Assembly (NCBI GenBank): GCA_947476555.1
Contig: CANJRI010000006.1
Location: 1,793-65,792 of the forward strand
DNA length: 64,000 nt
From: Caulobacteraceae bacterium
GTDB lineage: Bacteria; Pseudomonadota; Alphaproteobacteria; Caulobacterales; Caulobacteraceae
Direction: 5' to 3'
This document shows, in pieces, positions 5,939-57,866 of the stretch. The notes below the pieces were generated by a model. The model was not told the origin of the DNA. It saw nothing but the letters and a program-made list of their open reading frames with translations, and made no database searches. The number at the start of each line of letters is the position of its first letter. Within the stretch, counting starts at the first letter, position 1. The translations under genes were made by a program, and so were the position numbers.

Positions 5939-7179
5939 GCCTGCAGCATGGGTTCGAGCACGGCCAGGGCGCCATCCAGGGCGGCGGTCTGGCCGCCGGC
6001 GTAGGCCAGGGCCGCCTCGCCCATGCGGCGGGCGATAGCGGGGTTGTCCAGGAGCCCACGAATATGTCGCGCCAGGTCCTCCGCGGGGGTCTCGATGGCG
6101 CAGGCCCGGGCCAGCATCTCGTCGTAGAGATCGCGGGCGTTGAAGGGGTGGGGACCGGTGATCACCGCCCGGCCCAGACGCGCAGCCTCCAGGGGATTAT
6201 GCCCGCCGACCCCGGGGGTGAACGCCCCACCCATCACCACCACCTCGGCGGCGCGGAAGAACAGGCCGAGCTCGCCCAGGGTGTCGGCCACATAGATCCC
6301 GCCGCCCGGCGGGTCGCCGGCGCTCCTACGGGCGGCGCGGAAGCGGGCGGTCAGCTCGGCCCCGCGCTCGGGATGGCGTGGAGCGAGGATCAGGGCCGCC
6401 TCGCGGGGGTCGGGCGCGGCCTTGCGGAAGGCCTCGACGATCAGCGCCTCCTCGCCCGGATGGGTGCTGGCGGCCAGCACCAGTTTCCGGCCGCCGAGGC
6501 TGGCGGTGAAGCGGGACAGGGCGGCTTCGTCGCAGGGCAGGGGTTCCCCAATCCGCTTGAGGTTCAGGGGTGGGCCGGTGCGGGCGCCCAGGCTGTCCAG
6601 CCGCGCCGCGCTGGCGGCGTCCTGCGGCAGCACCGCACGGAAGCTCCCCAGCAGTTCCCGGGCCGCGCCGGGCCATTTCGCCCAGCCGGCGGCGCTTTTC
6701 GCCGTCATCCGCGCCGAGGCCAGCACCAGGGGCGTCTTCCGCCTTCCGGCGGCGCGGATCAGGTTCGGCCAGAGTTCGCTCTCCACCAGCACGCCCAGGT
6801 CAGGCCGCCAGTGGCTCAGGAAGCGCCGCATCGCACCCGGCGCGTCGACGGGCAGGAACTGGTGGATCGCACCCTCAGGCAGGCGTCCGGCCAACGCCTG
6901 GGCCGAGGTGACCGTGCCGCTGGTGATCAGGAGCGTGAGGCCGGGTCGGCGGGCCCGCAGAGCCTGCGCCAGCGGCAGAAGCGAAATCACCTCGCCGACA
7001 CTGACGCCATGCAGCCAGACGAGCGGCCCTTCCGGTCGCGCGGCGCCGGGCCGGCCCAGACGCTCGGCCAGGCGGGCGGCGTCCTCCTTGCCCCGCCGGG
7101 CGCGGGATCGCAGCACCAGAGGCGCGAACGGCTCGGCGAGCGCCGTCGCGGCGCCGTAAAGGGAAAGCGCCAGGCTCAC
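5935..7179 (-). CDS. waaA: Kdo transferase
   Basis: VWLHGVSVGE, ESELWPN, ASTHPGEE, APRHPERG, GGHNPLEAA. Confidence 0.95.
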   Translation of the reverse strand: MSLALSLYGAATALAEPFAPLVLRSRARRGKEDAARLAERLGRPGAARPEGPLVWLHGVSVGEVISLLPLAQALRARRPGLTLLITSGTVTSAQALAGRLPEGAIHQFLPVDAPGAMRRFLSHWRPDLGVLVESELWPNLIRAAGRRKTPLVLASARMTAKSAAGWAKWPGAARELLGSFRAVLPQDAASAARLDSLGARTGPPLNLKRIGEPLPCDEAALSRFTASLGGRKLVLAASTHPGEEALIVEAFRKAAPDPREAALILAPRHPERGAELTARFRAARRSAGDPPGGGIYVADTLGELGLFFRAAEVVVMGGAFTPGVGGHNPLEAARLGRAVITGPHPFNARDLYDEMLARACAIETPAEDLARHIRGLLDNPAIARRMGEAALAYAGGQTAALDGALAVLEPMLQA

Positions 7180-8099
7180 ACCACCCCGGCGGGCGCGAGG
7201 CGGCAGGCGTGGGCCGTGTCGGTCTCCACCTGCAAGGTGGCGTGACCGATCTTGAAGCGGTGGGCGAGGCCCTCGCAGGTCTGGTGCAGGAAGGCGTCCG
7301 GGTCCGGGTTCCCCGGGCGCAACAGGTGGACGGTCAGCGCGGTCTCGGTGGTGGAAAGCGCCCAGACGTGCAGGTCGTGCACTTCGACGACGCCCGGCCG
7401 CTCGGCCAGCCAGCGGCGCACCGCCTCCACGTCGACGGCGCGCGGCGCCGCGTCCAGGGCCAGGTCGAGGGAATCGCGCAGCAGGCCCCAGGTGCCCGTC
7501 ACGATGACCGCGGCGATCAGCAGGGAGAGCGCAGGGTCTATCCAGAATAGGCCGGTGGCGCCCATCGCGAAGGCGCCCACCACCACCGCCAGGGAGATGG
7601 CGGCGTCGGCGGCCAGGTGCAGGAAGGCGCCCCGCACATTGAGGTCCTCCTGGCCGCGCAGGAAGAGGGCGGCGGTGACGCCGTTCACCACCACGCCTAG
7701 CCCGGCCACCAGCATGATCACGTCGCCGTCGACCGGGGCCGGTTGGGCGAAGCGCCGGAGCGCTTCGGAGGTGATGGCGCCCACCGCCAGCATCAGCATG
7801 GCGGCATTGCCCAGGGAGGCCAGGATCGTCGCCTTGCGCAGGCCATAGGTGCGCCGGCCGGACGGCGCGCGCTTCGCGAGGATCGTCGCTCCCCAGGCCA
7901 GCAGCAGCGACAGGACGTCCGAAAGATTGTGGCCGGCGTCGGCCAGCAGGGAGAGCGAGCCGATCATCAGCCCGGCGCCCGCCTCGGCCAGGACGAAGGC
8001 GGTGTTCAGAACCACGCCGATCGCGAAGGCCCGGCCCATGTCCGGCGGGGCATGGTGATGATGGTGGCCAGGGCCGTGGTCGTGGTGATGGTGGTCCAT
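7176..8099 (-). CDS. CDF-family cation (Zn/Co/Cd) efflux transporter, ZitB/CzcD-like
   Basis: His-rich N-terminus MDHHHHDHGPGHHHHH, LLADAGHNLSD, NVRGAFLHLAAD, VHDLHVWALST. Confidence 0.92.
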   Translation of the reverse strand: MDHHHHDHGPGHHHHHAPPDMGRAFAIGVVLNTAFVLAEAGAGLMIGSLSLLADAGHNLSDVLSLLLAWGATILAKRAPSGRRTYGLRKATILASLGNAAMLMLAVGAITSEALRRFAQPAPVDGDVIMLVAGLGVVVNGVTAALFLRGQEDLNVRGAFLHLAADAAISLAVVVGAFAMGATGLFWIDPALSLLIAAVIVTGTWGLLRDSLDLALDAAPRAVDVEAVRRWLAERPGVVEVHDLHVWALSTTETALTVHLLRPGNPDPDAFLHQTCEGLAHRFKIGHATLQVETDTAHACRLAPAGVV

Positions 8100-8132
8100 C
8101 GGAGCCCTATGTCCCCCGAACCGGGAGCGCGA

Positions 8133-8831
8133 TCAATCCGGCGTCAGTCCAACGAGGATCTCGGCCCGGCGGGTGGCGGCTGAGAGGCGCGCCGACCAAT
8201 CCTTGATCACCGCCTCGACGTCGGCGTCCGGCGCTACATGCAGCGGCCCGTCCCAGACCACCGCCCCTCTGGCGAAGGGCAGGGCGAACATCGCCCGGTC
8301 CCAGCTGCCGCCCGCCCTCAGGCAGGGGTTGGCCGCGAGGCCCGAGAGGAACACCGGGCAGCCGGTCCGGCGCGCGATCTGGACCATGCCGGGCTGGATC
8401 ACCTCGGCTGGCCCGCGCGGCCCGTCCGGCGGCGTGACCAAGCCGTTGCCGGCCTTCACCCAATCCACCGCCTCGCGGAGCGCGCCCACCGCCTGGCGGA
8501 TGCGGGCGGCGTCGCGGCGCTTGGCCGAAGAAGCGCGCAGGGTGGGAAACCCGTTCATCTCCAGGGCGATGGCCATGAATTCCCCGTCGGCCGAGGGCGA
8601 GACCACGCACTTGGTCTTCTTGCGCCACCAGACCGGGGCGGTGGCCAGGGCGAGCGGGATGCGGCCATGCCACATCAGCCCGATGGCGCCTGAGCCGCCG
8701 GCCAGCATCGGCTCGACGGCTTCGCGGTTCTCGTGCCGCCAGCGCACGGTCCACAACACCAGCCGCAGATAGGCGCCCAGGATCGAGCCCAGGGCGACCT
8801 GCGCCGGATGGCTGCGCAGCAGACCCTTCAA
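8133..8831 (-). CDS. DUF374 lysophospholipid acyltransferase family (LpxJ-like lipid A secondary acyltransferase)
   Basis: WHGRI, SPSADGE and PDGPRGP motifs; located inside the lipid A operon. Confidence 0.8.
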   Translation of the reverse strand: MKGLLRSHPAQVALGSILGAYLRLVLWTVRWRHENREAVEPMLAGGSGAIGLMWHGRIPLALATAPVWWRKKTKCVVSPSADGEFMAIALEMNGFPTLRASSAKRRDAARIRQAVGALREAVDWVKAGNGLVTPPDGPRGPAEVIQPGMVQIARRTGCPVFLSGLAANPCLRAGGSWDRAMFALPFARGAVVWDGPLHVAPDADVEAVIKDWSARLSAATRRAEILVGLTPD

Positions 8832-10591
8832 GCGGCCGGTTCCAGATCCTGGCTCCGGGCGAGGCGCGCATAGAGCCCCCGCTTGCGGATCAATCCCGCG
8901 TGGTCGCCGGTCTCGACGATCCGGCCCTTGTCGATCACGTGGATGCGGTCGGCGCCGCGCACGGTGGACAGGCGGTGGGCGATCAGGATCACCGTGCGTC
9001 CCGCCATCAGCCGTTTGAGGGCCGCCTGCACCTGGGCTTCGCTCTCCGTGTCGAGGGCGCTGGTGGCTTCGTCCAGCAACAGGATCGGGGCGTCCTTGAG
9101 GAAGGCCCGCGCGATGGCGATCCGCTGGCGTTGGCCGCCGGAGAGCCGGGCGCCAGCCTCGCCCACCGTGGCGCTGTAGCCCCCGGGCAGGGTGGTGATG
9201 AAGTCGTGCGCGGCGGCGGCGCGGGCGGCGGCCTCGACCTCCGCGTCCGTCGCCTCTGGGCGCGCATAGGCGATGTTGGCGCGGATGGTCTCGTCGAACA
9301 GGAACGGCTCCTGGGTGACCAAGGCGATCTGATCGCGCAGAGAGGCGAGGCCGACGTCGCGCACGTCATGGCCGTCGATGGTCACCCGGCCGCGGATGGG
9401 ATCGTAGAAGCGCGGGATCAGGCCGAGGATCGTGGTCTTGCCGCCGCCTGAAGGCCCGACCAGGGCCACCGTCTCGCCCCGGCGGACCTCGAAATCTATG
9501 CCGGTGAGGGTCGCCGCGTCGCCGTAGGCGAACGAGACCTTCTCGAAGCGGATGGTGGCCGCGCCGCGGGGCAGGACGGCGGCGCCCGGCGCCTCGCGCA
9601 CCTGCGGCTCCACATCGAGGGCGGCGAACAGCCGCCGGGCCGCCGAGACGCCCTCGGCCATCACGGTCTGCAGGTTGGAGAGCTGGCGCAAGGACTGGGA
9701 CGCCACGCCCAGGGCGGCGATGAAGGCCACGAACGCGCCCACGGTCATCGCCCCCTGCTGGGAGCGCCAGCCGGCGTAGGCGATCACCGCGGCGGTGATC
9801 AGGGTCATCACCAGCTCGGTGGAAGGGGCGGCCAGGGCCCGGGCGTTGGCGCCCTTGGTCAGGTGGCCCTGCCGGCGGCGGACGACCTCGGCGACCCGGT
9901 CCTCCTCGTAAGCCTCGCGGTTCTCCAGCTTGACGACCCGAACCCCGTCCAGGCTCTCCATGATCGCGGTGGACAGCGCCGAGGTCTCGACCATGGCGCC
10001 CTTGGCGGCCTTGGTGGTCCGGCGGGAGAAGCGTCGCATGATCCAGGCCGTGAGCGGCATGGCGACAATGAGCACCACCGAGAGGGCGCGGTCGTTGCCG
10101 ACCATCACGGTGATGGCGCCGATGACGATCAAGAGGTGCTGGACGTAGTTGATGATGCCGCTGGTGGCCGCTTCGCGGATCAGGCCGGCGTCATAGACCA
10201 GCGACGAAACGAAGCTGCCCGAATGCTGGCTCCGCAGGCGGGCGAGGTCCGATCGCACCAGGCGGCCGAACAGCTGCACCTGCACGTCCGCCACCACGGC
10301 GTTGCCCATTCGGTTGACCAGGGTGGCCTGGACGACCTGGGCGATGGTGCGGCCGATGGCGTAGGCCGCGATGGTGAGGGGCAGCACCACGAGCATGCCG
10401 GGCTTGTGGCGCACCATCAGGTCGTTGGTGGCCGGCTCCAGGATCTGCACCAGCATGGTTGTGAACCAGGCCCCGGCGATCCCGGCCAGCAGGGCCAGGG
10501 CCCACGGCCCCCAGCGCGGCGCCACATAGGCGCGGGCGATCCGCGCGATCACCTCGCGGGCGGAGGGCTCGGGCGTTGCGGCCTCGCTCAT
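8828..10591 (-). CDS. msbA: MsbA-like lipid A ABC exporter
   Basis: N-terminal TM domain, Walker A GPSGGGKT, LSGGQRQRIAIARA, LLLDEATSALD; lipid A gene context; start moved to ATG 10591. Confidence 0.88.
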   Translation of the reverse strand: MSEAATPEPSAREVIARIARAYVAPRWGPWALALLAGIAGAWFTTMLVQILEPATNDLMVRHKPGMLVVLPLTIAAYAIGRTIAQVVQATLVNRMGNAVVADVQVQLFGRLVRSDLARLRSQHSGSFVSSLVYDAGLIREAATSGIINYVQHLLIVIGAITVMVGNDRALSVVLIVAMPLTAWIMRRFSRRTTKAAKGAMVETSALSTAIMESLDGVRVVKLENREAYEEDRVAEVVRRRQGHLTKGANARALAAPSTELVMTLITAAVIAYAGWRSQQGAMTVGAFVAFIAALGVASQSLRQLSNLQTVMAEGVSAARRLFAALDVEPQVREAPGAAVLPRGAATIRFEKVSFAYGDAATLTGIDFEVRRGETVALVGPSGGGKTTILGLIPRFYDPIRGRVTIDGHDVRDVGLASLRDQIALVTQEPFLFDETIRANIAYARPEATDAEVEAAARAAAAHDFITTLPGGYSATVGEAGARLSGGQRQRIAIARAFLKDAPILLLDEATSALDTESEAQVQAALKRLMAGRTVILIAHRLSTVRGADRIHVIDKGRIVETGDHAGLIRKRGLYARLARSQDLEPAA

Positions 10592-10643
10592 GGGCCTGGG
10601 ATCGGACGTTGCGGGCGCAAGGTCAAGCACCCTACTTAGGCTC

Positions 10644-11327
10644 ATGACTGCCGACCCTGCCCGGGCCCGATTCGATCTCGCCACGCCGGCCGGGCGGACG
10701 CGGGCCTATCTGGACTACCTGTGGAACGACCACGCCTATCTCCGGCTGGGCTTCTCCAACGCCCACTGGATCAGCGAGGAGCTGGTCAGGACCAACCAGC
10801 CCTGGCCGCATCAGCTGGCCGAGTGGAAACGGCGCGGAATCCGCACGGTGATCAACCTTCGCGGCGGCTTCGACGCCAGCTTTCACGCCCTGGAGAAGGA
10901 CGCCTGCGAGCGCCTGGGGCTGGAGATGGTGGATTTCACCATCACCTCGCGCGAGGTCCCGTCGAGGGATCGCGTCCTGGGCGCCCAGCGATTGTTCGAG
11001 ACCATCGCCTACCCGGCCCTGATGCACTGCAAGTCGGGCGCGGACCGGGCCGGGATCATGAGCGTGCTCTACATGCACTTCCGCAAGGGCAAGACCATCC
11101 GCGAGGCCATGGACCAGCTGCACCTGCGCTACCTGCATGTCCGCCAGGGCAAGACCGGGGTGCTGGACTACACCTTCGAGCGCCATCTCGAGGAGGGCGA
11201 GCCCGCCGGCATGAGCTTCACCGAGTGGGTGAAGAGCCCGATGTACGACCCGGCCGGCATGAAGGCGAAGTTCCGGGCGGGCATGCTGGGCTCGGTGCTG
11301 ACCGAGAAGCTGCTGCGCCGAGAGTGA
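10644..11327 (+). CDS. ctpA: CX5R tyrosine-phosphatase-like protein, probable orthologue of Caulobacter CtpA
   Basis: P-loop HCKSGADRAG; divergent from msbA-DUF374-waaA-lpxK, as known for C. crescentus ctpA. Confidence 0.82.
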   Translation: MTADPARARFDLATPAGRTRAYLDYLWNDHAYLRLGFSNAHWISEELVRTNQPWPHQLAEWKRRGIRTVINLRGGFDASFHALEKDACERLGLEMVDFTITSREVPSRDRVLGAQRLFETIAYPALMHCKSGADRAGIMSVLYMHFRKGKTIREAMDQLHLRYLHVRQGKTGVLDYTFERHLEEGEPAGMSFTEWVKSPMYDPAGMKAKFRAGMLGSVLTEKLLRRE

Positions 11328-14221: not shown

Positions 14222-15727
14222 CTACGGCAACCCCAGCCGCGCCCACTTCTCCGTCACCGCCTCGACCACGGCGGGATCCATCTCGATCAGCCGGCCCCAC
14301 TCGCGCTTGGTCTCGGGCGGCCATTTGTTGGTGGCGTCGAGGCCGATCTTGGAGCCCAGGCCGCTCTCCGGCGAGGCGAAGTCCAGGTAGTCGATGGGGG
14401 TCGATTCCACGACGGTGATGTCGCGCGCCGGGTCCATGCGGGTGGAGATCGCCCACATGACGTCCTTCCAGTCGCGGGCGTTGATGTCGTCGTCCACGAC
14501 GATCACCCACTTGGTGTACATGAACTGGCGAAGGTAGCTCCAGACGCCCATCATCACGCGCTTGGCGTGGCCGGCGTAGGCCTTCTTCATGGAGACCACG
14601 GCGATCCGGTAGGAACAGCCCTCCGGCGGGAGCCAGAAGTCGATGATCTCCGGGAACTGCTGGCGCAGCAGCGGGATGAAGACCTCGTTCAGCGCCTCCC
14701 CCAGGATCGAGGGCTCGTCCGGCGGCCGGCCGGTGTAGGTGGTCAGGTAGATGGGGTCCTTCCGCATGGTGACGGCGGTCACCTGGAAGATCGGGAAGGG
14801 CTCCACCGAGTTGTAGTAGCCGGTGTGGTCGCCGTAGGGCCCCTCGTCGGCATATTCGTCCAGCAGGACGTGGCCCTCCAGCACGATCTCGGCCTGGGCC
14901 GGGACCATCAGCGGCACGGTCTTGGCCGGGACCAGCTCGACCTTTGATCCCCGGAGCAGCCCCGCGAACTGGTATTCCGAAAGCGTCTCGGGCACGGGGG
15001 TGACGGCCGCCAGGATGGTCCCCGGGTCGGCGCCGATCACCGCGCACGCCGGCAGTGGCTCGCGCTTGCCGGCGCCCTTCCACCGGCGGTGGTGCTGGGC
15101 CCCGCCCCGGTGCGCCAGCCAGCGCATGATGGTGCGGTCCTTGCCGATCACCTGCATGCGGTAGATGCCGAGGTTGTAGTCGTCCTCGCGGTCGGTCGAC
15201 GGGCCCTTGGTGACCACCAGCGGCCAGGTGATCAGCGGCGCCGGCTCGCCCGGCCAGCAGGTCTGGACGGGCAGCTGGGTCAGATCGATGTCGTCGCCCT
15301 TGAGCACCACCTCCTGGACGGGGCCCGACTTCCTGACCTGCGGCCGCATGGCCATCACGGTCTTGGCCAGGGGCAGCATCTCCATGGCGTCCTTCAGGTC
15401 GCCCGGCGGAGTGGGGTTGCGCAGGAAGGCCAGCAACTCGCCCACTTCGCGCAGGTCGGCCGCCGTGGAGCGTTCGCGGCCCTCCAGCGTCACGCCCATC
15501 GCCACGCGCTTGACGGTCCCGAACAGGTTGACGAGGCAGGGCATGGCCGAGCGCTGGCCGTCGGCGCGGATGACGTGCTCGAACAGGATCGCCGGCCCGC
15601 CCTTGGCCAGGACCCGCCGCTGGATCTCGGTCATCTCCAGCACCGAGGAAACGGGTTCGCTGACGCGCACCAGCTCGCCGGCGGCTTCCAGCTTGGCGAT
15701 GAACTCACGGAGCGAGCGATAGGCCAT
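14222..15727 (-). CDS. ubiD: UbiD family prFMN-dependent decarboxylase
   Basis: [40 protein letters not shown]. Confidence 0.95.
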
Positions 15728-15767
15728 GGCGCTCCCTAGAGCCTGACAGCCGGGAGTGGAAGCCGGT

Positions 15768-15837
15768 TCCGGTAGTTCTCCCAGGCGGGCGCTCGCCTAC
15801 GTAGTTCGCGAAAGCGCCGATACCTAGTTCTCCGAAG
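15768..15837. promoter_or_regulatory. Three TAGTTC-centred repeats in the ubiD / wHTH-gene intergenic region
   Basis: TCCGGTA-GTTC-TCCCAGG (15768), CTACGTA-GTTC-GCGAAAG (15797), ATACCTA-GTTC-TCCGAAG (15820). Confidence 0.4.
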
Positions 15838-15938
15838 CTCCCAGAAAGGCGGCCGCGACATATTATTCCTCACAGACGCATTGCGGCTCGGCCGGAAGTA
15901 CCTTCCGGTTTGAGCATCGCCTCAAAGGTGGAAGTGCT

Positions 15939-16880
15939 GTGAACGGCTCACTGACGCCCAGAACCGATCTACCGGCGACCCTCCTGCGGGATCGGACGCT
16001 CGGACGAGCGTCGATCCGCTTCCTGATGGGCCAGGTGACCACCGGCATGGAGGGCCTGAACCCGCGCGACGTGGTGCTGATGCTGGCGATCAATCAGGCC
16101 AACATCGCCCCGCTGACCCGCGACCCCGCGGCCCGCCAGCGCTATGGCGCGCTCGAGGCGCCCGCGCCGGACGCCGAGCGGCGGCCGGTGAGCATCAACG
16201 CCATCGCCGCCTCCCTGCGGACCCCGTTCGAGACCGTGCGCCGCCATATCCACCGCATGGAGGCGCTGGGGGTCTGCGTCACCAGCAAGGACGGCGTCGT
16301 GGTTCCCCAGTCGTTCCTATCCTCCCCCGGCTACCTGCGAAGCGTGCTGGAGAGCCACCAGGGCCTGTGCGAATTCTACTATGGGGCGCGGGGCGACGGC
16401 CTCCTGGGTCATCTTCCCGCCTCCAACTTCCCCTGGGACGGGGAGGTGCCGATCCGCGCGGCCGCGCGGTTGCTTTCGGACTATCTGCTCAGGACATCCG
16501 AACTGGTCATGGCGGGCATCGCCGACGATGTGGTTTCGATGCTGGTCCTCTGCGGCGTGCTGGACGCCAGCCTCGACCGGCTGGTGAACGGGCCGGCGGA
16601 CGCGCCCTACAAGGGCGTCGGGATCGCCGCGCTCTCGCGGCGTTTGCAGATACCCGACGAAACCCTGCGCCGCCACGCCGAGCGGCTCATCGACCAGGGC
16701 CGTCTCGCGCGGTTCGGCCGCGAGCTGGTGGTCACCGAGGAGATCGTCTCCGGGCCGGTGATGGCCGAGTTCCTGCGCCAGAACACCATCAATGTTCGAC
16801 GGCTGTTCACCGGCCTCGCCGAGCGGGGGGTGATCGAGGCCTGGGACCGCATCGGGGCGGCGCAACGCATCCGCGCCTAG
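15939..16880 (+). CDS. Uncharacterised protein made of two tandem winged-helix-like modules
   Basis: RPVSINAIAASLRTPFETVRRHIHRMEALG and KGVGIAALSRRLQIPDETLRRHAERLIDQG align to each other; GTG start. Confidence 0.7.
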   Translation: MNGSLTPRTDLPATLLRDRTLGRASIRFLMGQVTTGMEGLNPRDVVLMLAINQANIAPLTRDPAARQRYGALEAPAPDAERRPVSINAIAASLRTPFETVRRHIHRMEALGVCVTSKDGVVVPQSFLSSPGYLRSVLESHQGLCEFYYGARGDGLLGHLPASNFPWDGEVPIRAAARLLSDYLLRTSELVMAGIADDVVSMLVLCGVLDASLDRLVNGPADAPYKGVGIAALSRRLQIPDETLRRHAERLIDQGRLARFGRELVVTEEIVSGPVMAEFLRQNTINVRRLFTGLAERGVIEAWDRIGAAQRIRA

Positions 16881-17005
16881 CGACCTGTGGGAGGGCCACC
16901 TTCACAAGGAGGTGACAGCCACGCCGGAGACGCAACCACCGATTGCCGGGCGGGTTGATCACGCTATAGTTGATCAATCCCCATTATCCCGGTGTGATAG
17001 CGCCC

Positions 17006-17635
17006 ATGCCAGCGTCGCAACCCAACAGCTTTGTCCACGTCATCGACGACGACGAAGCGGTCCGTGATTCCCTGGCGGCCCTGCTGGATTCGGCGGGCAT
17101 GGAAGTGCGGACCTACGCCTCGGCGGGTGATTTCCTGGCCAGGGGCGCCTCGGCCGAGGCGGGCTGCGTGGTCACCGACGTGCGCATGCCGGAGATCACC
17201 GGCCTGGAATTGCTGCGTCACCTCAACGAGCGGGGTGCGCGCTTTCCGGTCATCGTGCTCACCGGCGAGGCGGACGTGCCGATGGCGGTGGAAGCGCTCA
17301 AGCGAGGCGCCTCCGATTTCATCGAGAAGCCCTTCAACGATGACGTGATCCTGGACGCCACCCGGGCCGCGCTGCTGCGCATGGAAGGCGATGCGCAGCG
17401 CAGCGAGGAGGCGCAGGACGCGGCCGACAAGATCGCTCTGCTTTCGAGCCGCGAGCGCGAGGTGCTCACCGGACTGGTGGCCGGGAGGTCAAACAAGATT
17501 ATCGCCCTCGATCTTGGCATCAGCCCGCGCACCGTCGAGGTCTACCGGGCCAACATCATGAGCAAGACCCACGCCGACAGCCTGTCGGACCTGGTGAAGA
17601 TGGCGCTGCTGTCGCAAGCGAGCGCGCCCGCCTAA
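17006..17635 (+). CDS. FixJ/NarL-type response regulator (receiver plus LuxR HTH)
   Basis: VIDDDEAVRDSL, TDVRMP, FIEKPF, LSSREREVL...SNKIIALDLGISPRTVEVYRANIMSK. Not called fixJ because no fixL is adjacent. Confidence 0.92.
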   Translation: MPASQPNSFVHVIDDDEAVRDSLAALLDSAGMEVRTYASAGDFLARGASAEAGCVVTDVRMPEITGLELLRHLNERGARFPVIVLTGEADVPMAVEALKRGASDFIEKPFNDDVILDATRAALLRMEGDAQRSEEAQDAADKIALLSSREREVLTGLVAGRSNKIIALDLGISPRTVEVYRANIMSKTHADSLSDLVKMALLSQASAPA

Positions 17636-17985
17636 CGAAAGACGCTCCGCACGGTCGCCACGATGGCGTCCGGATCGAAAGGCTTCTCGATGAAGACCGC
17701 GGTGTTGCGGGCCGCCTCCGCCGCCATGGTGGGGTCCGGCCGGCCGGTCATCACGATCACCGGGACGTTGGCGCCTTGGTCGCGCAGTCGCCGCAGCAGC
17801 TCCAATCCCGAAATGCCAGGCATCTGCACATCGGTGAGCACGCAGCCGTCGTCAGGCAGCAAGCCGTCGAGGAAAGCCTGGGCCGAGCCATAGGCCTTCA
17901 CCGCGAAGTCCTCGCTCTCCAACAGGCAAGTCAGGGAGTCGCGAACCGCGTCGTTGTCATCGATGATGTGGACGAAGGGCGCCAT
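17632..17985 (-). CDS. Single-domain response regulator (receiver only)
   Basis: C-terminal 117 aa of ORF 17632-18714: MAPFVHIIDDND, LTDVQMP, MTG, FIEKPF; all phosphorylation-pocket residues retained. Confidence 0.85.
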   Translation of the reverse strand: MAPFVHIIDDNDAVRDSLTCLLESEDFAVKAYGSAQAFLDGLLPDDGCVLTDVQMPGISGLELLRRLRDQGANVPVIVMTGRPDPTMAAEAARNTAVFIEKPFDPDAIVATVRSVFR

Positions 17986-18085
17986 ATCGGGCCGGTGTGC
18001 CTTGCTGGACGTCGCCGAGGACTCGGGGCGTACCATCCAAAGCTGGTACGCGGATTGGCCTGCGAAGGAAATTCCGGTCGTTGCC

Positions 18086-18103
18086 CTAGGGAAGGTTACG
18101 TAG
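18086..18103. promoter_or_regulatory. 7-4-7 pseudo-palindrome, putative transcription-factor site
   Basis: CTAGGGA-AGGT-TACGTAG about 100 bp upstream of the receiver-only gene; near-identical copy at 18803. Confidence 0.55.
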
Positions 18104-18110
18104 ACCATCG

Positions 18111-18707
18111 TCAGGCGCGAGCCGGGAGGCTGGGCGTGACAACGGCATAGCGGGCGAGTTCGCCCACCGAGAGCCAGTGCATATCCTGCGGACGGGTGCG
18201 CAGGGCCGGCACCAGCAGATCCATGGCGCCCGACATCTTGTTCACGTGGATCGCCACCATCGACATCAGCCATTGGCTGTCGGACGCGCTGAGCGAGGCT
18301 GCGCCGCCGCCGGCCACCTGATGAACGCCCACCTTGCCGCCGGTCCCGACGGTGCGTTCGACGCCGCCGAGGAAGACATAGACGCAGGCCGATGCGCAGG
18401 CGCCGCCGTCCCGGACCATCGTGGCGACGCCAGCCTTGCGCACCGCGTCGCCCATAGCCAGGCTCTCGAGCACATTGCCGCCCTGGGAGTCGAGGATCAG
18501 CAGGGCGCCGGGCGCGACCTTGCGGGACTTCATGAAGCCCTGCAGCGCCTTGGCGGCGTCCTTGTCGATGCCGCCGCTGGCGAGCACGCACTGGCGAGCC
18601 GCGCAGGCCGCGGTGTCGCTCACCGTTTGGAACGTCATCGCCGAGGCCTGGGAGGTCAGGCCCAGAAGCAAGGTGGCGGCGGCGATGGCGATCCCGGCGA
18701 AGCGCAT
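18111..18707 (-). CDS. Secreted COG3904-like protein with ClpP/crotonase-like fold
   Basis: Signal peptide (...SQASA), LDSQGG, CASAC and GVHQ motifs. Confidence 0.7.
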   Translation of the reverse strand: MRFAGIAIAAATLLLGLTSQASAMTFQTVSDTAACAARQCVLASGGIDKDAAKALQGFMKSRKVAPGALLILDSQGGNVLESLAMGDAVRKAGVATMVRDGGACASACVYVFLGGVERTVGTGGKVGVHQVAGGGAASLSASDSQWLMSMVAIHVNKMSGAMDLLVPALRTRPQDMHWLSVGELARYAVVTPSLPARA

Positions 18708-18802
18708 GGCTCAACTCCTCAAGTTCAGGAGTTGGTACGTGTCGGGCCTGATCCGCGAAATTCCGGCCGTTTCCGTAAGGGGATTTCCGTTGGGCGCTCC
18801 CC

Positions 18803-18820
18803 CTAGGGAATTCTACGGAG
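18803..18820. promoter_or_regulatory. 7-4-7 pseudo-palindrome, second copy (weaker third copy at 18775-18792)
   Basis: CTAGGGA-ATTC-TACGGAG about 96 bp upstream of the COG3904 gene; GTAAGGG-GATT-TCCGTTG at 18775. Confidence 0.55.
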
Positions 18821-19484
18821 CGGGTGACAGAGTCCAGACCGCGGTGCGCTTGACCGCCACGTCCTCCAGTTCGCGGGTGGTGAGGACCTCATATTCCGCC
18901 AGCTTCGTCAGGCCCTGGCGAGGGAAGTAGCTGCGGCCGGGGTCGCCGATCAGCACCTGCGCCCCTGCGGCTCCCGCGGCCGCCAGCCAGGTCATCACCT
19001 GCTCCGCCAGGGGTTTCTCGTAGCAGACGTCGGCGACCAGGATCACCTCGGCCCAGGCGGGCGCCGGGCCTTCCAGCAGATTCTCGCCGGTGAACTCCAC
19101 GGCTACGCCGTTGGCGCTCGCGTTGATCTCCACGGCGGCCTCGCAGAAGACGTCGATGTCGGCGGCCAACACCCGCGCCGCGCCCGCCTTGGCGGCGGCG
19201 ATGGCGACGATCCCTGAGCCTGACGCGAAGTCGATGGTCGCCTTGCCCGCGACCACCGAAGGATTGTCCAGCACGTAGCGCGCCAGGGCCTGGCCGCCTG
19301 CCCAGGCGAACGCCCAGAACGGCGGCGGCAGGCCGATCTCGCTGAGGGCCTCCTCCGTCAGCCGCCAGATCGGGGTGATCTCGGACGCCAGGTGGAGCAC
19401 CAGTTCGGGGGTATGCGGCGGCCGCTCAGCGGTGGTGTTCTCGCGGATGAACGCGCGTCGGGCCTCAGGGGTCGGGGCGATCAT
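18813..19484 (-). CDS. SAM-dependent protein methyltransferase, METTL20/ETFB-KMT (COG3897)-like
   Basis: PPPFWAFAWAGGQALARY, DFASGSG, ADVCYE, GDPGRSY. Confidence 0.85.
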   Translation of the reverse strand: MIAPTPEARRAFIRENTTAERPPHTPELVLHLASEITPIWRLTEEALSEIGLPPPFWAFAWAGGQALARYVLDNPSVVAGKATIDFASGSGIVAIAAAKAGAARVLAADIDVFCEAAVEINASANGVAVEFTGENLLEGPAPAWAEVILVADVCYEKPLAEQVMTWLAAAGAAGAQVLIGDPGRSYFPRQGLTKLAEYEVLTTRELEDVAVKRTAVWTLSPAP

Positions 19485-19514
19485 GGACGGGCCATGACAC
19501 ATCCTGTCGGAAGT

Positions 19515-44420: not shown

Positions 44421-46088
44421 ATGGCGGGCGACCGCTGGATGTGGGACGCCACGGCCACCCTGGAGGCCCTGGGCGCGGCCGGCGTGGCCCTGTGGGTCTG
44501 GGACCCGGACGCCGACCGCCTGCGCTTCACCGGCTCGACACGCGCCCTCGGTCTGGGGCCGCTGGCGCCCGACTGTTCTTCCGCCGCCTTCCGGGCCCTG
44601 GCCCTGCCGCAGGACCGCGCGCTGGCCGAGGATGTGCTGCGCGTCCAGGACCCCGGCGGGGAGGTGGCCGTGCGTCTCAGGATGCGCGGCGCCGGGACCT
44701 GCATCTGGAGGGGCCTGTGGCTGGAGGAGGGCCGCCGGGCCGCCGGCGTGGTCGCCGCCGAGGTCCGCTTCGCCGCGTCCGAGCAGGATCCGCTCACCGG
44801 CCTGCTGGACCGCAAGAGCTTCCTGGCCCGCGCCCGCGAGCGCCTGACCCTGCCCGGCAAGCACGAACTGATCGTCGCCGACCTCGACCGCCTGCGACGG
44901 TTGAACGAGGCCCTGGGGCACGAGCGCGCCGACCTGGTGCTGGCCGCCCTGGGCTCGCGCCTGGCCGCCGCCTTCCCGCCGGGCGCCCTCCTGGCCCGCA
45001 TCGGCGAGGACGAATTCGCGGCCTTCGCGCCGGTGGGGGATTCCCCCGGCCCCGAGGTGCTGCGGCGCGCCCTGGAGCATCCCCTGCGGGTGGCGGGTTT
45101 CGACATCCACCCGACCCTTTCCATCGGCGCCGTCGAGACGGTCGGCGGCGACGAGGCCCCCGAGGCGGCCGAGCTGCTGCGCCGGGCCGAACTCGCCGTG
45201 GAATCCGCCAAGAGCACCGGGCGCGGCGGGGCCGCCGCCTACGGCCGGGGCCTGGAGAGCGACGGGCTTTCCCGCCTGGCTCTGGAGGGCGACCTCAAGG
45301 GCGCTCTGGGGCGCGGCGAGCTCACCGCCTTCTACCAGCCGATCGTCCGGCTCTCGACCGGGGCCCTTTCCGGCTTCGAGGCCCTGGTCCGTTGGCGCCA
45401 CCCGCGCCGCGGCCTCCTGACCCCCGAGCAGTTCCTGCCGCTCTGCGAGGAGATGGGCCTGATGAGCCAGCTGGGCGCCGCCATGATGCGCGACGCCGCC
45501 CAGCAACTGGCCGACTGGCGGACCCGCCACCGGGCGGCCGGCGAGCTGACCGTGGCCGTCAACCTCTCCACCGGCGAGATCGACCGGCCCGACCTGGTCG
45601 ACCAGGTCCGTCAGATCCGCCGCGACACCGGCCTGCCGGCCGGCGCGCTGAAGCTGGAGGTCACCGAGAGCGACGTCATGCGCGACCCCGACCGCGCGGC
45701 CGTGGTGCTGGAGGCCCTGCGCCACGCAGGGGCGGGCCTGGCCCTCGACGACTTCGGCACCGGCTTCTCATCGCTCTCCTACCTGACCCGCCTGCCGTTC
45801 GACACCATCAAGGTCGACCGCTACTTCGTGCGGACCATGGCTGCCAACGAGGGGTCCGAGAAGATCGTCTCGTCCGTGGTCCGCCTGGGCCAGGACCTTT
45901 CCATGGAGGTGGTGGCCGAGGGGGTGGAGAACGCCGGCATGGCCCGCCGCCTGCTGGCCCTGGGCTGCGACTACGGCCAGGGCTTCGGCTACGCCCCGGC
46001 GCTGTCGCCCCAGGAAGCCGAGGTCTATCTCAACGAAAGCTATGTGGATGGCGCGGCGCCGGTCATGGCGCGCGGCAGCCGGGGTTAG
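44421..46088 (+). CDS. pdeA: c-di-GMP phosphodiesterase with degenerate GEDEF plus EAL domains, probable PdeA orthologue
   Basis: RIGEDEF, GFEALVRW, DDFGTGFSSL, KVDR, EGVE, QGF; C-terminus ends in RG. Confidence 0.85.
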   Translation: MAGDRWMWDATATLEALGAAGVALWVWDPDADRLRFTGSTRALGLGPLAPDCSSAAFRALALPQDRALAEDVLRVQDPGGEVAVRLRMRGAGTCIWRGLWLEEGRRAAGVVAAEVRFAASEQDPLTGLLDRKSFLARARERLTLPGKHELIVADLDRLRRLNEALGHERADLVLAALGSRLAAAFPPGALLARIGEDEFAAFAPVGDSPGPEVLRRALEHPLRVAGFDIHPTLSIGAVETVGGDEAPEAAELLRRAELAVESAKSTGRGGAAAYGRGLESDGLSRLALEGDLKGALGRGELTAFYQPIVRLSTGALSGFEALVRWRHPRRGLLTPEQFLPLCEEMGLMSQLGAAMMRDAAQQLADWRTRHRAAGELTVAVNLSTGEIDRPDLVDQVRQIRRDTGLPAGALKLEVTESDVMRDPDRAAVVLEALRHAGAGLALDDFGTGFSSLSYLTRLPFDTIKVDRYFVRTMAANEGSEKIVSSVVRLGQDLSMEVVAEGVENAGMARRLLALGCDYGQGFGYAPALSPQEAEVYLNESYVDGAAPVMARGSRG

Positions 46089-46089
46089 C

Positions 46090-46137
46090 GCGCCCTCAGG
46101 CGAAGTGGGAACCGGTTCGCCGCCCGGAGGGCGCGCC
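46090..46137. repeat. CIR-like palindromic repeat, variant B copy 1
   Basis: 48 bp identical to 55659-55706; directly after the pdeA stop, between convergent genes. Confidence 0.88.
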
Positions 46138-46145
46138 AGCAAAGA

Positions 46146-46706
46146 TCAGGCCCGCCCCGCCGTGGATCCCAGGAACTTCGGGTCGATGCCCAGCTTGGCC
46201 AGCGCCCGGCTCCACTTCGTCGAATAGTCCTCGTCGAAGACCAGCGCCTCGTCGGCCTCGCAGGTCAGCCAGACATTCTGGCGGATCTCCTCCTCCAGCT
46301 GCCCCGCGCCCCAGCCGGCGTAGCCCAGCGCCAGCACCGAGCGGCGAGGGTGGTCCTCGCTGGCCATGGCCTCCAGCACCTCCCGGGTGGCGGTCAGGCC
46401 CACGCCCGGACCGACCCGCAAGGAGAACTCGCCCTTGTAGTCGTCGGTGTGCAGCACGAACCCGCGCTCGCGCTCCACCGGTCCGCCCAGCAGCACCAGG
46501 TGCGGCGGCACGTGGATCGTCGACTTGATCTCCAGCTTCTCCAGCAGGTCGGGGACGGTCAGCCCCTCGACCGGACGGTTCACCGCCAGGCCCATGGCGT
46601 GCTCGGGGTCATGGGCGCAGACAAGGATCAGCGTCCGCTCGAAACGCGGGTCGGAAATCCCCGGCATGGAGATCAGCAGTTGGCCGGACAGGAAGGCGCC
46701 TTCCAT
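46146..46706 (-). CDS. YqgE/AlgH (UPF0301) protein
   Basis: GQLLISMP, FERTLIL, GGPVERERGFVLH, LGYAGWGAGQLEEEI. Confidence 0.92.
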   Translation of the reverse strand: MEGAFLSGQLLISMPGISDPRFERTLILVCAHDPEHAMGLAVNRPVEGLTVPDLLEKLEIKSTIHVPPHLVLLGGPVERERGFVLHTDDYKGEFSLRVGPGVGLTATREVLEAMASEDHPRRSVLALGYAGWGAGQLEEEIRQNVWLTCEADEALVFDEDYSTKWSRALAKLGIDPKFLGSTAGRA

Positions 46707-46799
46707 CGCCGATAGGTAAGCGTCCGATCGCGGCGCTTTCAAGGGGCCTTGCCGGTTGCTATCAGCGAGGCCCGGTTGGTTTCTGAAGGAGGCATGGTC

Positions 46800-47282: not shown

Positions 47283-47842
47283 GACGCCTTCGGAAAGGGC
47301 CGGCTGACGAAGGTCGAGCCGGCCTCGCCGAACCGCCACGGGACGTCCACGGCCTTGCTGATGCCGATGCGCGGACCGGCGACGACGCCGCGCGCCTTGC
47401 CGGGGCTCACCATGAACGGCGCGCGGTCCAGCGGCATGGCGTTGTGTTCGCGCGTCACCGCCAGGGCCTGGCAGACCTTGCCCGGTCCGGAGCACAGGCC
47501 GCGCAGCTCGGCCCGGCCGCGGCGCTCGGCCATCAGGTCCAGCCCGTGGGTCGGCTCCAGGGCGCGGATCAGCAGGCCGCTGCCAGGTGTCTCCCCGCAC
47601 ACGAAATTCAGGCACCAGTGGACGCCGTAGGAGCGGTAGACGTAGGCGTGGGCCGGTGGGCCGAACATGGCCGCGTTGCGCGGGGTGGGGCCTGAGTGGG
47701 TGTGCGAAGCGGGGTCCTCGTGATGGTAGGCCTCGATCTCGACGATTCGGCCGCCGACGCCGCCCACCAGCACCTCCCAGCCGATCAGGTCATGGGCGAC
47801 CGTGGCCGGGTGCCGGGTCCAGAAGCCGGACGGCCAGCTCAA
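47279..47842 (-). CDS. mpg: 3-methyladenine DNA glycosylase (MPG/AAG type)
   Basis: C-terminal 187 aa of ORF 47279-49744: [41 protein letters not shown]; TTG start overlaps the upstream stop. Confidence 0.9.
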
Positions 47843-50692: not shown

Positions 50693-52102
50693 ATGACCGC
50701 CCCCGTCCCCGCCGATGTGATCGCGCGCCTGAAGGCGGTGCTAGGCGCGGGCGGCTGGAGCGACGATCCCGCCGTCCTGGCGCCCAAGCTGGTGGAGTGG
50801 CGCGACCGCTGGACGGGCAGCACCCCGTTCCTGGCCCTGCCGCGCACCACCGCCGAGGTGGCCGCCGTGGTCGGGATCTGTTTCGAGTCCGCCGCCCCGA
50901 TCACCGTACAGGGCGGCAACACCGGCCTGGTCGGCGGCCAGATCCCGCAGGGCGAGATCCTGCTCTCAACCCAGAAGCTGCGGGCGATCCGCGAGGTCGA
51001 TCCCCTGGACGACACCCTGGTCGCCGAGGCCGGCGTGACCCTCGCCGAAGTCCACGCCGCCGCCGCCCAGGTGAAGCGCCGGTTTCCCCTCGGCCTGGCC
51101 TCGGAAGGCTCGGCCACGGTGGGCGGGGTGGTCTCCACCAACGCTGGCGGGACCCAGGTGCTGCGCTACGGGACCACCCGCAACCTCGTCCTCGGCCTTG
51201 AGGCGGTGATGCCCAACGGCGAGGTCTGGAATGGCCTGAAACGCCTGCGCAAGGACAACACCGGCTACGATCTGAAACAGCTGCTGATCGGGGGCGAGGG
51301 AACGCTCGGCGTCGTCACAGCCGCCAGTCTCAAGCTCTTCCCGGTGCTGCCTTCCCGCGCCGTCGCCATGATCGGCCTCGCCACGCCCGAGGCGGCCCTT
51401 CAGCTCCTGGCCCGCGCCAAGGACACCGCCGGCGGGACCGTCGAGGCCTTCGAGCTGATCAGCGGCCTCGGCCTGACCTTCGCCGTGCGCCACATCCCGG
51501 GATCGCGCGATCCGATGGAGAGCCGCCACCCCTGGTACGTCCTGGTGGAGTTCGCTTCGTCCGAGCCCGGATCGTCGGAATCGGCGATGGAGCGCTTCCT
51601 GGCCGAAGGGCTCGAAGCCGGCCTGATCGCCGACGCCGTCCTGGCCCAGACCGAAACCCAGGGCCGGGCGCTCTGGGCGCTGCGCGAGAACCAGTCCGCC
51701 GCCCAGAAGCCGGAGGGCGCGGTCTGGAAGCACGACGTGGCGGTGCCGGTCAGCCAGGTCCCGGCCTTTCTGGCCCGGGCCACGGCGGCGGTGACGGCCC
51801 TGGCGCCCGGCGCGCGGGTGATTTCCTTCGGCCATGTGGGCGACGGCAACATCCACTACGACGTGCTGCGGCCGAACGGCGGCTCCGACGCCGAGCACGC
51901 CGCCCGCCGCGACGAGGGCTCGCGGCTGGTCCACGACATCGTCGCCGAGTTCGGCGGATCGATCAGCGCCGAGCATGGCCTGGGCGCCATGAAAACCGCC
52001 GAGGGCGCCCGCTATAAGAGCGCCGTGGAGCTGGAGGCGCTGAAGGCCGTCCGGCGGGCCCTGGATCCCCGGCGAATCCTCAATCCGCGTGTCTTGTTCT
52101 AG
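50693..52102 (+). CDS. FAD-linked oxidoreductase (D-2-hydroxyacid dehydrogenase/GlcD-like)
   Basis: QGGNTGLVGG, RKDNTGYDL, GHVGDGNIH, SISAEHG. Confidence 0.88.
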   Translation: MTAPVPADVIARLKAVLGAGGWSDDPAVLAPKLVEWRDRWTGSTPFLALPRTTAEVAAVVGICFESAAPITVQGGNTGLVGGQIPQGEILLSTQKLRAIREVDPLDDTLVAEAGVTLAEVHAAAAQVKRRFPLGLASEGSATVGGVVSTNAGGTQVLRYGTTRNLVLGLEAVMPNGEVWNGLKRLRKDNTGYDLKQLLIGGEGTLGVVTAASLKLFPVLPSRAVAMIGLATPEAALQLLARAKDTAGGTVEAFELISGLGLTFAVRHIPGSRDPMESRHPWYVLVEFASSEPGSSESAMERFLAEGLEAGLIADAVLAQTETQGRALWALRENQSAAQKPEGAVWKHDVAVPVSQVPAFLARATAAVTALAPGARVISFGHVGDGNIHYDVLRPNGGSDAEHAARRDEGSRLVHDIVAEFGGSISAEHGLGAMKTAEGARYKSAVELEALKAVRRALDPRRILNPRVLF

Positions 52103-53976: not shown

Positions 53977-54059
53977 TCCACCTTGTTGCCGGTTGTCGAG
54001 CGTCACGGCAACCCGGCGCGGCCTTGGCGCCGGGCGCGAGCCGGGGCATGACGACGGCC

Positions 54060-54857: not shown

Positions 54858-54859
54858 CC

Positions 54860-55657: not shown

Positions 55658-55658
55658 A

Positions 55659-55706
55659 GCGCCCTCAGGCGAAGTGGGAACCGGTTCGCCGCCCGGAGGG
55701 CGCGCC
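55659..55706. repeat. CIR-like palindromic repeat, variant B copy 2
   Basis: Identical to 46090-46137; preceded by TAGA containing the bdh stop and followed by an A-rich tail. Confidence 0.88.
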
Positions 55707-55730
55707 GGACAAAAAACCTAGGCCATCGGT

Positions 55731-57805: not shown

Positions 57806-57834
57806 TTGACCCCTATGGACCCGGGGGCTTATGT
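57806..57834 (+). promoter_or_regulatory. Sigma70-family promoter for the Cys-repeat gene
   Basis: TTGACC-N17-TTATGT, 32 bp before the GTG start. Confidence 0.45.
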
Positions 57835-57866
57835 GCGCCCAACCTTGCTCATGGGGAGTTCTTACG

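Follow-up and report, generated by a model that had tools for sequence, protein, structure and literature searches.

A predicted FixJ-type circuit joining a single-domain receiver and a probably exported ClpP-fold protein in a Caulobacteraceae bacterium

A 64,000-nucleotide stretch of DNA from a Caulobacteraceae bacterium (assembly GCA_947476555.1, contig CANJRI010000006.1; below, the window) carries a cassette of four genes between ubiD and the gene of a PrmA-like methyltransferase, which encode a tandem winged-helix protein, a FixJ-family response regulator, a single-domain receiver and a probably exported ClpP-fold protein. An earlier sequence-only reading of this DNA had pointed to the cassette, and we confirm the four genes at the positions it gave as well as the lack of a histidine kinase gene in the interval. 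We interpret the last three genes as the output half of a FixJ-family two-component circuit, in which the regulator would activate the genes of the ClpP-like protein and the receiver and would be served by an unlinked FixL-family kinase; we put the probability of this reading at roughly 0.6. That the regulator switches on its own antagonist together with an exported, protease-like effector is the best reading because both of these genes carry a promoter of the FixJ-dependent type.

In the proposed circuit, the regulator would be transcribed from its own sigma-70-like promoter and phosphorylated on its receiver domain by a kinase encoded elsewhere, either a canonical FixL or a displaced orthologue of the kinase seen in relatives. 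The phosphorylated regulator would bind a distal CT[A/C]CGTA[A/G] box and a proximal CCCT(T)AGG box, the latter about 7 nucleotides (nt) upstream of CGGAATTTC, and the bound protein would activate two fixK-type promoters. From the first promoter, a Sec-exported periplasmic hydrolase of the ClpP fold, in which the active-site Ser and His of ClpP are retained, would be produced as the effector. From the second, a single-domain receiver would be produced and exert negative feedback on the signalling kinase, through either inhibition of autophosphorylation in the manner of FixT or competition for phosphate. Our statements on regulation, including binding, activation and the direction of feedback, as well as those on enzyme activity and the identity of the kinase, are predictions based on sequence homology and synteny.

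Genes and promoters of the trio

The regulator gene (17006-17635, + strand) encodes a protein of 209 amino acids (aa) with a receiver domain and a GerE/LuxR helix-turn-helix (HTH) domain. Its open reading frame (ORF) opens at 16970 or 17006, and the ATG at 17006 is the likely start. Both domains were recognised by Pfam (Response_reg, E 2.9e-28; GerE, E 2.1e-18), and the protein passed the cutoff of the NCBIfam FixJ equivalog NF006900 (282.9 bits against 255). The best PDB match is full-length B. japonicum FixJ (5xso, E 2e-57, residues 8-201), and the two proteins have near-identical recognition helices (ISPRTVEVYRANIM in the window regulator). Among the related metagenomic loci described below, L155 has a regulator with 78% identity to that of the window and a ratio of nonsynonymous to synonymous substitution rates (dN/dS) of 0.17; for the kinase-linked regulators of L146, L150 and L156 the identity is 60-66%. 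A sigma-70-like promoter, TTGCCG-N16-TATAGT, precedes the gene (16943-16970, +) as a match to the consensus only; the region contains two sigma-70-like sites, compared with 0.2 expected.

The spacers upstream of both the ClpP-like gene and the receiver gene share one recurring element, composed of the distal box, the proximal box, CGGAATTTC, 17 nt and CGTACC. The element of the receiver gene lies at 18040-18103 (- strand) and comprises CTACGTAA, CCTTCCCTAGGG, N7, CGGAATTTC, N17 and CGTACC, while that of the ClpP-like gene lies at 18729-18820 (- strand) and comprises CTCCGTAG, AATTCCCTAGGG, the proximal CCCCTTACGG and CGGAATTTC-N17-CGTACCAAC. In the orientation of the respective gene, the sequence of the ClpP-like spacer is CTCCGTAGAATTCCCTAGGGGGAGCGCCCAACGGAAATCCCCTTACGGAAACGGCCGGAATTTC-N17-CGTACCAAC and that of the receiver spacer is CTACGTAACCTTCCCTAGGGCAACGACCGGAATTTC-N17-CGTACCAGC; in both, the proximal CCCT(T)AGG stands about 7 nt upstream of the -35-like CGAATTTC. 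The distal box CTCCGTAG of the ClpP-like promoter (18813-18820) overlaps the stop codon of the methyltransferase gene. The sequence-only reading had described a recurring pseudo-palindrome in these spacers, and the recurrence is genuine and exceeds chance: the 64 kb contain exactly two copies of GGAATTTC-N17-CGTA, both in cassette spacers, against 0.10 expected. The distal motif CTMCGTAR is found in the window only at 15797, 18096 and 18813, once in each of three cassette spacers.

Because its blocks align with fixK promoters and its matrix scores are high, we identify the pseudo-palindrome as a fixK-type promoter, predicted to be FixJ-dependent. The two window promoters align with the fixK promoters of P. 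zucineum, B. japonicum, R. palustris, Bradyrhizobium BBta, A. caulinodans and Xanthobacter (PMC4999443, Fig. S2), and the common blocks are distal CT[A/C]CGTAG, proximal CCCT(T)AGG, CGAATTTC, N17 and CGTACC. For example, the region upstream of P. zucineum fixK reads CCTCCGTAGAACTTAAAGGTGCGACCCCTTAGGGGGACGCCACGAATTTCTTCGGGCCCGCGCAGGCGTACCC, and the region upstream of B. japonicum fixK2 ends in CGAAATTTTC-N17-GCGTACCAATG (PMC4999443, Fig. S2). Motifs of FixJ obtained by systematic evolution of ligands by exponential enrichment are GTAGTTTCCC and GTAMGTAG, the S. meliloti fixK site is TAAGTAATTTCCCTTA, and a CSNAATWT element is found at -33 of fixK promoters (all reviewed in PMC4999443). The published FixJ motifs match the boxes of the module promoters, with GTAGTTTCCC present exactly in L146 and GTAATTTCCC in L066.

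For scoring, we used a weight matrix derived from 15 promoters outside the window (nine from ClpP-like or receiver genes of related loci and six published fixK promoters), which replaced a loose regular expression for the -35/-10 pair that had given many false matches in AT-rich loci. Across both strands of the window, the two highest scores were 42.5 bits (18729-18786) and 39.2 bits (18040-18097); the third-ranking site reached 13.0 bits, and the background was -41 bits with a standard deviation of 11. When applied to about 0.8 Mb of Phenylobacterium-like DNA that had been fetched for another purpose, the same matrix found one site of at least 16 bits.

The receiver gene (17632-17985, - strand) encodes 117 aa, of which residues 8-115 are covered by Response_reg in Pfam, with nothing beyond the receiver domain. 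The protein is a FixT-like paralogue of the receiver domain of the regulator (53% identity), and the receiver-only proteins retain the acidic pocket, the phospho-acceptor Asp, and the conserved Thr and Lys (D9, D10, D52, T80 and K101). Their alpha-1 region is nearly identical to that of the regulator, so with this helix and all the phospho-acceptor residues the receiver-only protein could dock on the kinase of the regulator. The stop codons of the convergent receiver and regulator genes overlap by 4 nt (17632-17635), and this overlap is kept in L150, L155, L156 and the P0126 contig. No terminator-like site was found between the two genes. Once the receiver promoter is induced, transcription would continue antisense through the regulator gene and, in relatives, the kinase gene as well, which could be a second layer of negative feedback.

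The mode of the principal feedback can be compared with Caulobacter FixT, a single receiver domain that is induced by FixLJ and inhibits the autophosphorylation of FixL rather than draining phosphate (PMC7078487). The four-Cys Fe-S motif of Caulobacter FixT is stated to be unique to that protein (PMC7078487). As the window receiver lacks this motif, has the full phospho-acceptor set and resembles the regulator in alpha-1, it may also act as a competitive sink. The phosphate sink proposed in the sequence-only reading is thus one option, beside the FixT precedent of inhibited autophosphorylation.

The third gene (18111-18707, - strand) encodes a 198-aa protein with a signal-peptide-like N-terminus, which ends between ASA and MTF and is conserved throughout the family. 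The protein is probably exported and periplasmic, a description that we prefer to "secreted", the word first applied to it. Because the signal peptide would put the protein in the periplasm, we expect no AAA+ partner. The AlphaFold model has a mean predicted local distance difference test (pLDDT) score of 89.7, and its top 50 PDB matches in Foldseek are all ClpP (E 2e-8 to 1e-7; template modelling (TM) score 0.51-0.56). Three motifs are invariant in the family, namely S74-x-G-G, C104-x-S106-A-C108 and H129-Q; in a profile alignment to E. coli ClpP, S-x-G-G falls on NSPGG of ClpP, Ser106 on the catalytic Ser, and His129-Gln on His-Gln-Pro. The match to the NCBIfam ClpP model is below its cutoff (17 bits against 251; E 0.003).

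The ClpP-fold family is large, with 17,199 representatives at E <= 0.001 and 8,374 clusters (50% identity) at E <= 1e-10, and none of the homologues with a listed Pfam status has a Pfam match. Members of 340-400 aa that are extended at the C-terminus are numerous, and in some proteins, of up to 1,339 aa, the domain is repeated three to six times in tandem. Four Cys are invariant or nearly so in the 198-aa protein (C35, C40, C104 and C108), and the last two flank the putative catalytic Ser. Periplasmic disulfides formed by these residues could make the ClpP-like enzyme redox-sensitive, which would deserve attention in a protein with a promoter of the oxygen circuit.

Conservation of the trio and the kinase of its relatives

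Relatives were found by a metagenome scan with the ClpP-like alignment and by look-ups of individual homologues. The order of a ClpP-like gene, a receiver gene on the same strand and a convergent FixJ-type regulator gene recurs in L066, L070, L146, L150, L155, L156 and the P0126 contig, which amounts to at least seven independent metagenomic loci; in L064 and L067, the ClpP-like and receiver genes are present and then the contig ends. L155 is the closest relative (72%, 70% and 78% identity for the ClpP-like protein, receiver and regulator), and dN/dS between the window and L155 is 0.17-0.30 in all three genes, indicating purifying selection. The earlier view of these three genes as one unit is therefore borne out by the recurrence of their order.

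A fixK-type promoter also precedes the ClpP-like genes of L066, L070, L146, L150, L155 and L156, and it is kept by ClpP-like genes without adjacent two-component genes in L148 and L065. More distant ClpP-like genes adjoin other FixJ/LuxR-type regulators or hybrid kinases (L068, L069, L071, L075, L158) or have no signalling genes nearby (L144, L145, L072, L076). In L146, a second set is found at 8639-11059, where a receiver-only gene that follows the FixJ-type box TACGTAGTCTCCC is convergent with genes for a FixJ-type regulator and a CHASE3 kinase of the HELNQPL type; this second set suggests that a box-driven receiver facing a regulator-kinase operon is reused with different sensors. In L144 (6001-7497) and the P0144 contig, which represent a different branch of the ClpP-like subfamily, enoyl-CoA hydratase genes precede the ClpP-like gene and one for a PrmA-like methyltransferase follows it. 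The PrmA-like methyltransferase gene of the window adjoins the ClpP-like gene on the opposite side, and tblastn between the window and L144-type methyltransferases gave no match at E <= 1e-8 and at least 45% query coverage.

In all four loci where the upstream side of the regulator is visible (L146, L150, L156 and the P0126 contig), a kinase of 344-368 aa is encoded there. These module-linked kinases have a polytopic membrane N-terminus, with a weak match to DUF4118, and a FixL-type HELNQPL H-box, and they lack a PAS domain. Since relatives encode a FixL-type kinase at this position, the window represents a derived variant, and the orphan state of its regulator is recent and lineage-specific. 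The earlier idea of a self-contained, kinase-less module is accordingly not upheld, whereas the need for a distant kinase stands: with no kinase gene in the locus, the regulator would be an orphan served by an unlinked FixL-family kinase. Among the module loci, only the window has a winged-helix gene in the position of the kinase gene, and tblastn detected no remnant of a lost kinase in the window.

A tblastn search of the whole window with the kinase core found one histidine kinase, a hybrid with the architecture CHASE3-HisKA-HATPase-receiver (52099-54006, - strand), 34 kb away. We rejected it as an obvious partner; its identity to the module-linked kinases is 25-27%, and it has no core of the HELNQPL type. 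The core of this hybrid is 48% identical to that of an HDFNN-type hybrid kinase adjoining the ClpP-like homologue in L069. Since some distant ClpP-like genes adjoin such hybrids (L068, L069, L071, L158), some chance remains that it is the partner.

A broader picture, which we offer tentatively and regard as rather doubtful, is that Caulobacteraceae have a so far undescribed FixJ-paralogue system, in which a FixL-type kinase of the membrane, without haem, is combined with a regulator of the FixJ type, a receiver like FixT and a periplasmic ClpP-fold Ser/His hydrolase. This system would be wired into oxygen signalling, and loss of the dedicated kinase in the window would hand the module over to canonical FixL. 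The link to oxygen is suggested because the promoters are indistinguishable from fixK promoters. If this is true, the dedicated output would be periplasmic proteolysis or processing, an exported ClpP-like enzyme would be a direct target of the hypoxia response, and a family of unnamed ClpP-fold proteins with more than 8,000 clusters would gain an initial lead to its function.

The variable interval, the winged-helix gene and competing explanations

The interval is bounded on the left by ubiD (14222-15727, - strand) and on the right by the gene of the PrmA-like methyltransferase (18813-19502, - strand), and its four ORFs have a coding-type GC content at third codon positions (GC3; 0.85-0.90). 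The UbiD of the window is 88% identical to that of the Phenylobacterium relatives L045 and L048, and the methyltransferase is 72% identical to its L045 counterpart. In L045, the interval between the methyltransferase gene and ubiD (7011-10001) holds four other ORFs, and with different genes in this place the interval is a variable spot. These ORFs are one of 587 aa, which by eye resembles gamma-glutamyltranspeptidase, another winged-helix paralogue, oppositely oriented, and two small ones. The cassette spacers, described earlier as AT-rich, have 58-62% GC as compared to 70% for the window overall; intergenic regions of the window ordinarily range from 60 to 77%, so the spacers are at the low end of this range, which is nothing special in itself.

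Searches for RNA genes gave no Rfam match for the cassette at E <= 1 or, at gathering score, for the whole window, and no tRNA was found. Elsewhere in the window, three stretches of 556-873 nt with 70-73% GC (46089-46748, 47283-47838 and 54858-55730) have no ORF passing the coding filter and likewise no tRNA or Rfam match; they may hold short or unusual genes. A 453-aa ORF at 57831-59192 (+ strand; GC3 0.90) has no Pfam match at E <= 1e-4, and a PdeA-like PAS-GGDEF-EAL protein, in keeping with an origin from Caulobacteraceae, is encoded at 44421-46088 (+ strand; PF21815, E 3e-54).

The winged-helix gene (15939-16880, + strand) encodes a 313-aa protein. Its AlphaFold model (pLDDT 91.3) shows two helix-rich, MarR-like halves, each with a beta hairpin. 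HTH matches in Pfam fall on residues 71-123 and 229-254, and none of them reaches its gathering score; the best Foldseek matches are weak (SelB winged-helix repeats, MarR proteins and SarS; E 0.007-0.16). The family has at least 436 homologues, and among the matches listed nearly all the named ones are from Phenylobacterium; it splits into several paralogue groups and has the invariant motifs NQANIxPLT and ETxRR. Adjacent duplicated paralogues are found in Phenylobacterium, in L011 (6907-8856; 51-54%) and in L151/L152 (6001-7933; 34-35% identical to the window protein). The duplicates and the invariant motifs suggest a lineage-specific expansion of regulators.

A contig scan with the winged-helix alignment gave 63 loci. 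None of the homologues with 43-57% identity has a gene for a FixJ-type regulator, a receiver-only protein or a ClpP-like protein nearby, and across 49 loci (about 800 kb) the closest homologues have neither a FixJ box upstream nor a FixJ-type regulator in their surroundings. Members of the window protein's own group (48-57% identical) are found in unrelated settings, such as next to trpGDC-lexA or, in P. soli, as tandem duplicates. Beside ubiD, only the paralogues of L045 and L048 are found, and these belong to another group (32-35% identical). The winged-helix gene is therefore most likely a neighbour and not a core member, which is also the simplest view because the ubiD-methyltransferase interval is a variable spot. 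Its inclusion in the module by the sequence-only reading does not hold, given that its closest homologues occur elsewhere, without FixJ-type regulator or promoter. As to the check proposed at that time, co-occurrence of the four families in relatives, the trio recurs and the winged-helix gene's own group does not recur with it.

Several points weigh against our preferred reading that the regulator activates its two neighbours. No FixK box (TTGA-N6-TCAA) is found in the 64-kb window, and the distance from the distal box to the -35 element is uneven (by manual count, about 23 and 51 nt in the window promoters and 37 nt in fixK promoters). The window receiver has two Cys (C20 and C48) and is without the four-Cys motif of Caulobacter FixT; C48 sits in a GC-x-x-T-D motif that is invariant across receivers and regulators. 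In the ClpP-fold protein, the position of the catalytic Asp aligns with R172/P173, the nearby D175 is not invariant, and a Pfam scan gave no match; hydrolase activity is uncertain because the Asp is unconserved and the protein belongs to no Pfam family. The window sequence was detected solely in DNA runs of lake or freshwater metagenomes. Finally, the adjacent regulator need not be the activator, because a canonical FixJ of this organism would probably recognise the same boxes.

The last point leads to an explanation that we consider improbable but worth weighing, in which a canonical oxygen-sensing FixL-FixJ pair encoded elsewhere drives both promoters, the ClpP-like protein and the receiver are members of the hypoxia regulon, and the adjacent regulator would be redundant, cross-talking or decaying. 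The window promoters are nearly superimposable on the P. zucineum fixK promoter (CTCCGTAGAA, CGAATTTC, N17, CGTACC), the recognition helix is the same as in B. japonicum FixJ, and several FixLJ sets are often present in Caulobacterales (PMC4999443, Table S3); the ClpP-like genes of L148 and L065, moreover, keep the promoter without a linked regulator. Set against this, the trio stays closely linked with a regulator of its own and, in relatives, also with a dedicated kinase that lacks haem, a conserved linkage that favours a dedicated system; the regulator, in addition, is under purifying selection, and a promoter-like site precedes its gene. The two explanations are compatible and not mutually exclusive. 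We find it quite unlikely, by comparison, that the four genes form a self-contained module in which the regulator also activates the winged-helix protein as a second-tier DNA-binding output. The palindromic CTACGTAG at 15797-15804 (+ strand), a distal-type FixJ box of tentative function, lies within GCCTACGTAGTTC, a sequence with which the L156 receiver promoter also begins; it stands, correctly oriented, some 140 nt before the winged-helix gene. A winged-helix paralogue in L066 is divergent from the ClpP-like gene and shares its box-containing spacer, and in L150 a related 169-aa protein with a single winged helix is encoded upstream of the kinase (hhalign probability 93.6%, 45 columns). However, the candidate core promoter of the window gene (CCGAAGCTC-N17-ACATAT; 15811-15868, + strand) is weak, scoring -3.1 bits and ranking 50th of about 128,000 positions, which is not significant alone; the winged-helix genes of the window, L066 and L150 belong to different paralogue groups (34-39% mutual identity) and occupy different positions; the subfamily of the window protein is, in 49 loci, without box or FixJ-type regulator; and it is the kinase gene that adjoins the regulator gene in the four other module loci. 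The model of the sequence-only reading is supported in part: of the three outputs that it ascribed to the regulator, the antagonist and the effector have strong fixK-type promoters, and the second DNA-binding protein has a distal-type box and a weak candidate promoter.

The shared element might instead be a promoter of an extracytoplasmic function (ECF) sigma factor (GGAAT...CGTA) and not an activator-dependent FixJ promoter, which appears very improbable. ECF promoters typically have GGAAC and CGT motifs, which GGAAT and CGTA resemble, and genes for an ECF sigma factor and its anti-sigma factor adjoin the ClpP-like gene in L146 and L150. However, the distance from GGAAT to CGTA is 20 nt, while 16-17 nt is typical of ECF promoters, no ECF sigma gene is near the window cassette, and the ECF systems of L146 and L150 are of different types. 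In addition, the element in its entirety, upstream boxes included, corresponds to promoters whose dependence on FixJ has been shown by experiment (cited in PMC4999443), a homology that makes the ECF reading unnecessary; on spacing and on the likeness to fixK promoters, we rejected it. Least credible is a chance juxtaposition of unrelated genes. The variability of the interval, with different genes in L045, would allow it, but the synteny of the trio in at least seven loci, the rare promoter common to two genes and the conserved stop overlap speak against it. Chance is effectively refuted for the trio, and is the likeliest reading for the winged-helix gene alone.

Relation to known systems

The closest known circuit is FixL-FixJ-FixK-FixT, by which Alphaproteobacteria (S. 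meliloti, B. japonicum, C. crescentus and R. palustris) respond to oxygen. Like it, the window has a regulator above the FixJ equivalog cutoff and predicted target promoters with distal box, proximal box, CGAATTTC, N17 and CGTACC in the manner of fixK promoters. The receiver with its fixK-type promoter, predicted to be induced by the regulator, mirrors C. crescentus FixT and R. palustris RPA4249, and the module-linked kinases of relatives carry the FixL-type HELNQPL H-box. In contrast, the window locus is without a kinase, the kinase of relatives has a membrane N-terminus in place of PAS-haem, and neither a fixK gene nor a FixK box is present in the window. Published work assigns the control of fixT in C. 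crescentus to FixK; the window receiver gene is preceded by a FixJ box and, within the window, by no FixK box, and its product, unlike C. crescentus FixT, has no four-Cys Fe-S motif. The other predicted target, a probably exported ClpP-fold protein, is absent from the FixJ targets in PMC4999443; comparative genomics has indicated that FixJ of Caulobacterales has essentially one conserved direct target, fixK (PMC4999443).

The closest systems to the ClpP-fold protein are ClpP (S14) and other serine peptidases of the ClpP/crotonase fold (SppA, NfeD-type); it matches ClpP in fold and aligns with it at SxGG, Ser106 and His129-Gln, and it differs in its signal peptide, the unconserved catalytic Asp, the four conserved Cys and the lack of a Pfam match. 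Orphan regulators and CheY-type sinks offer another precedent, in that the window regulator has no adjacent kinase and a paralogous receiver keeps the phospho-acceptor residues, but the orphan state here is recent and lineage-specific. The winged-helix protein recalls two-domain proteins of the MarR/SarA type (SarS, PDB 1p4x), with two winged-helix halves in one 313-aa chain that would mimic a MarR dimer; unlike them, its family is lineage-specific, and its structural matches are weak (E >= 0.007) and its Pfam matches sub-threshold.

The logic of the circuit, with a FixJ-type regulator, a fixK-type promoter and an induced receiver inhibitor, is already known from FixLJ-FixT. The literature searched gave no paper tying this ClpP-fold family to FixJ and no published function for the family. 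Within that literature and PMC4999443, four features appear to be new, namely an exported target with the ClpP fold, control of the receiver directly through a FixJ box, a membrane kinase without haem in relatives, and the kinase-less arrangement of the window, so that the word "undescribed", chosen in the first reading, fits the ClpP-like target and the module as a whole and not the circuit logic. The window and its relatives point to a second promoter class that has the fixK architecture in full and stands before two genes other than fixK. The receiver promoter points to a direct loop from FixJ to a FixT-like protein that bypasses FixK, and the kinase-bearing and kinase-less versions of the module offer a natural case of rewiring in a two-component system.

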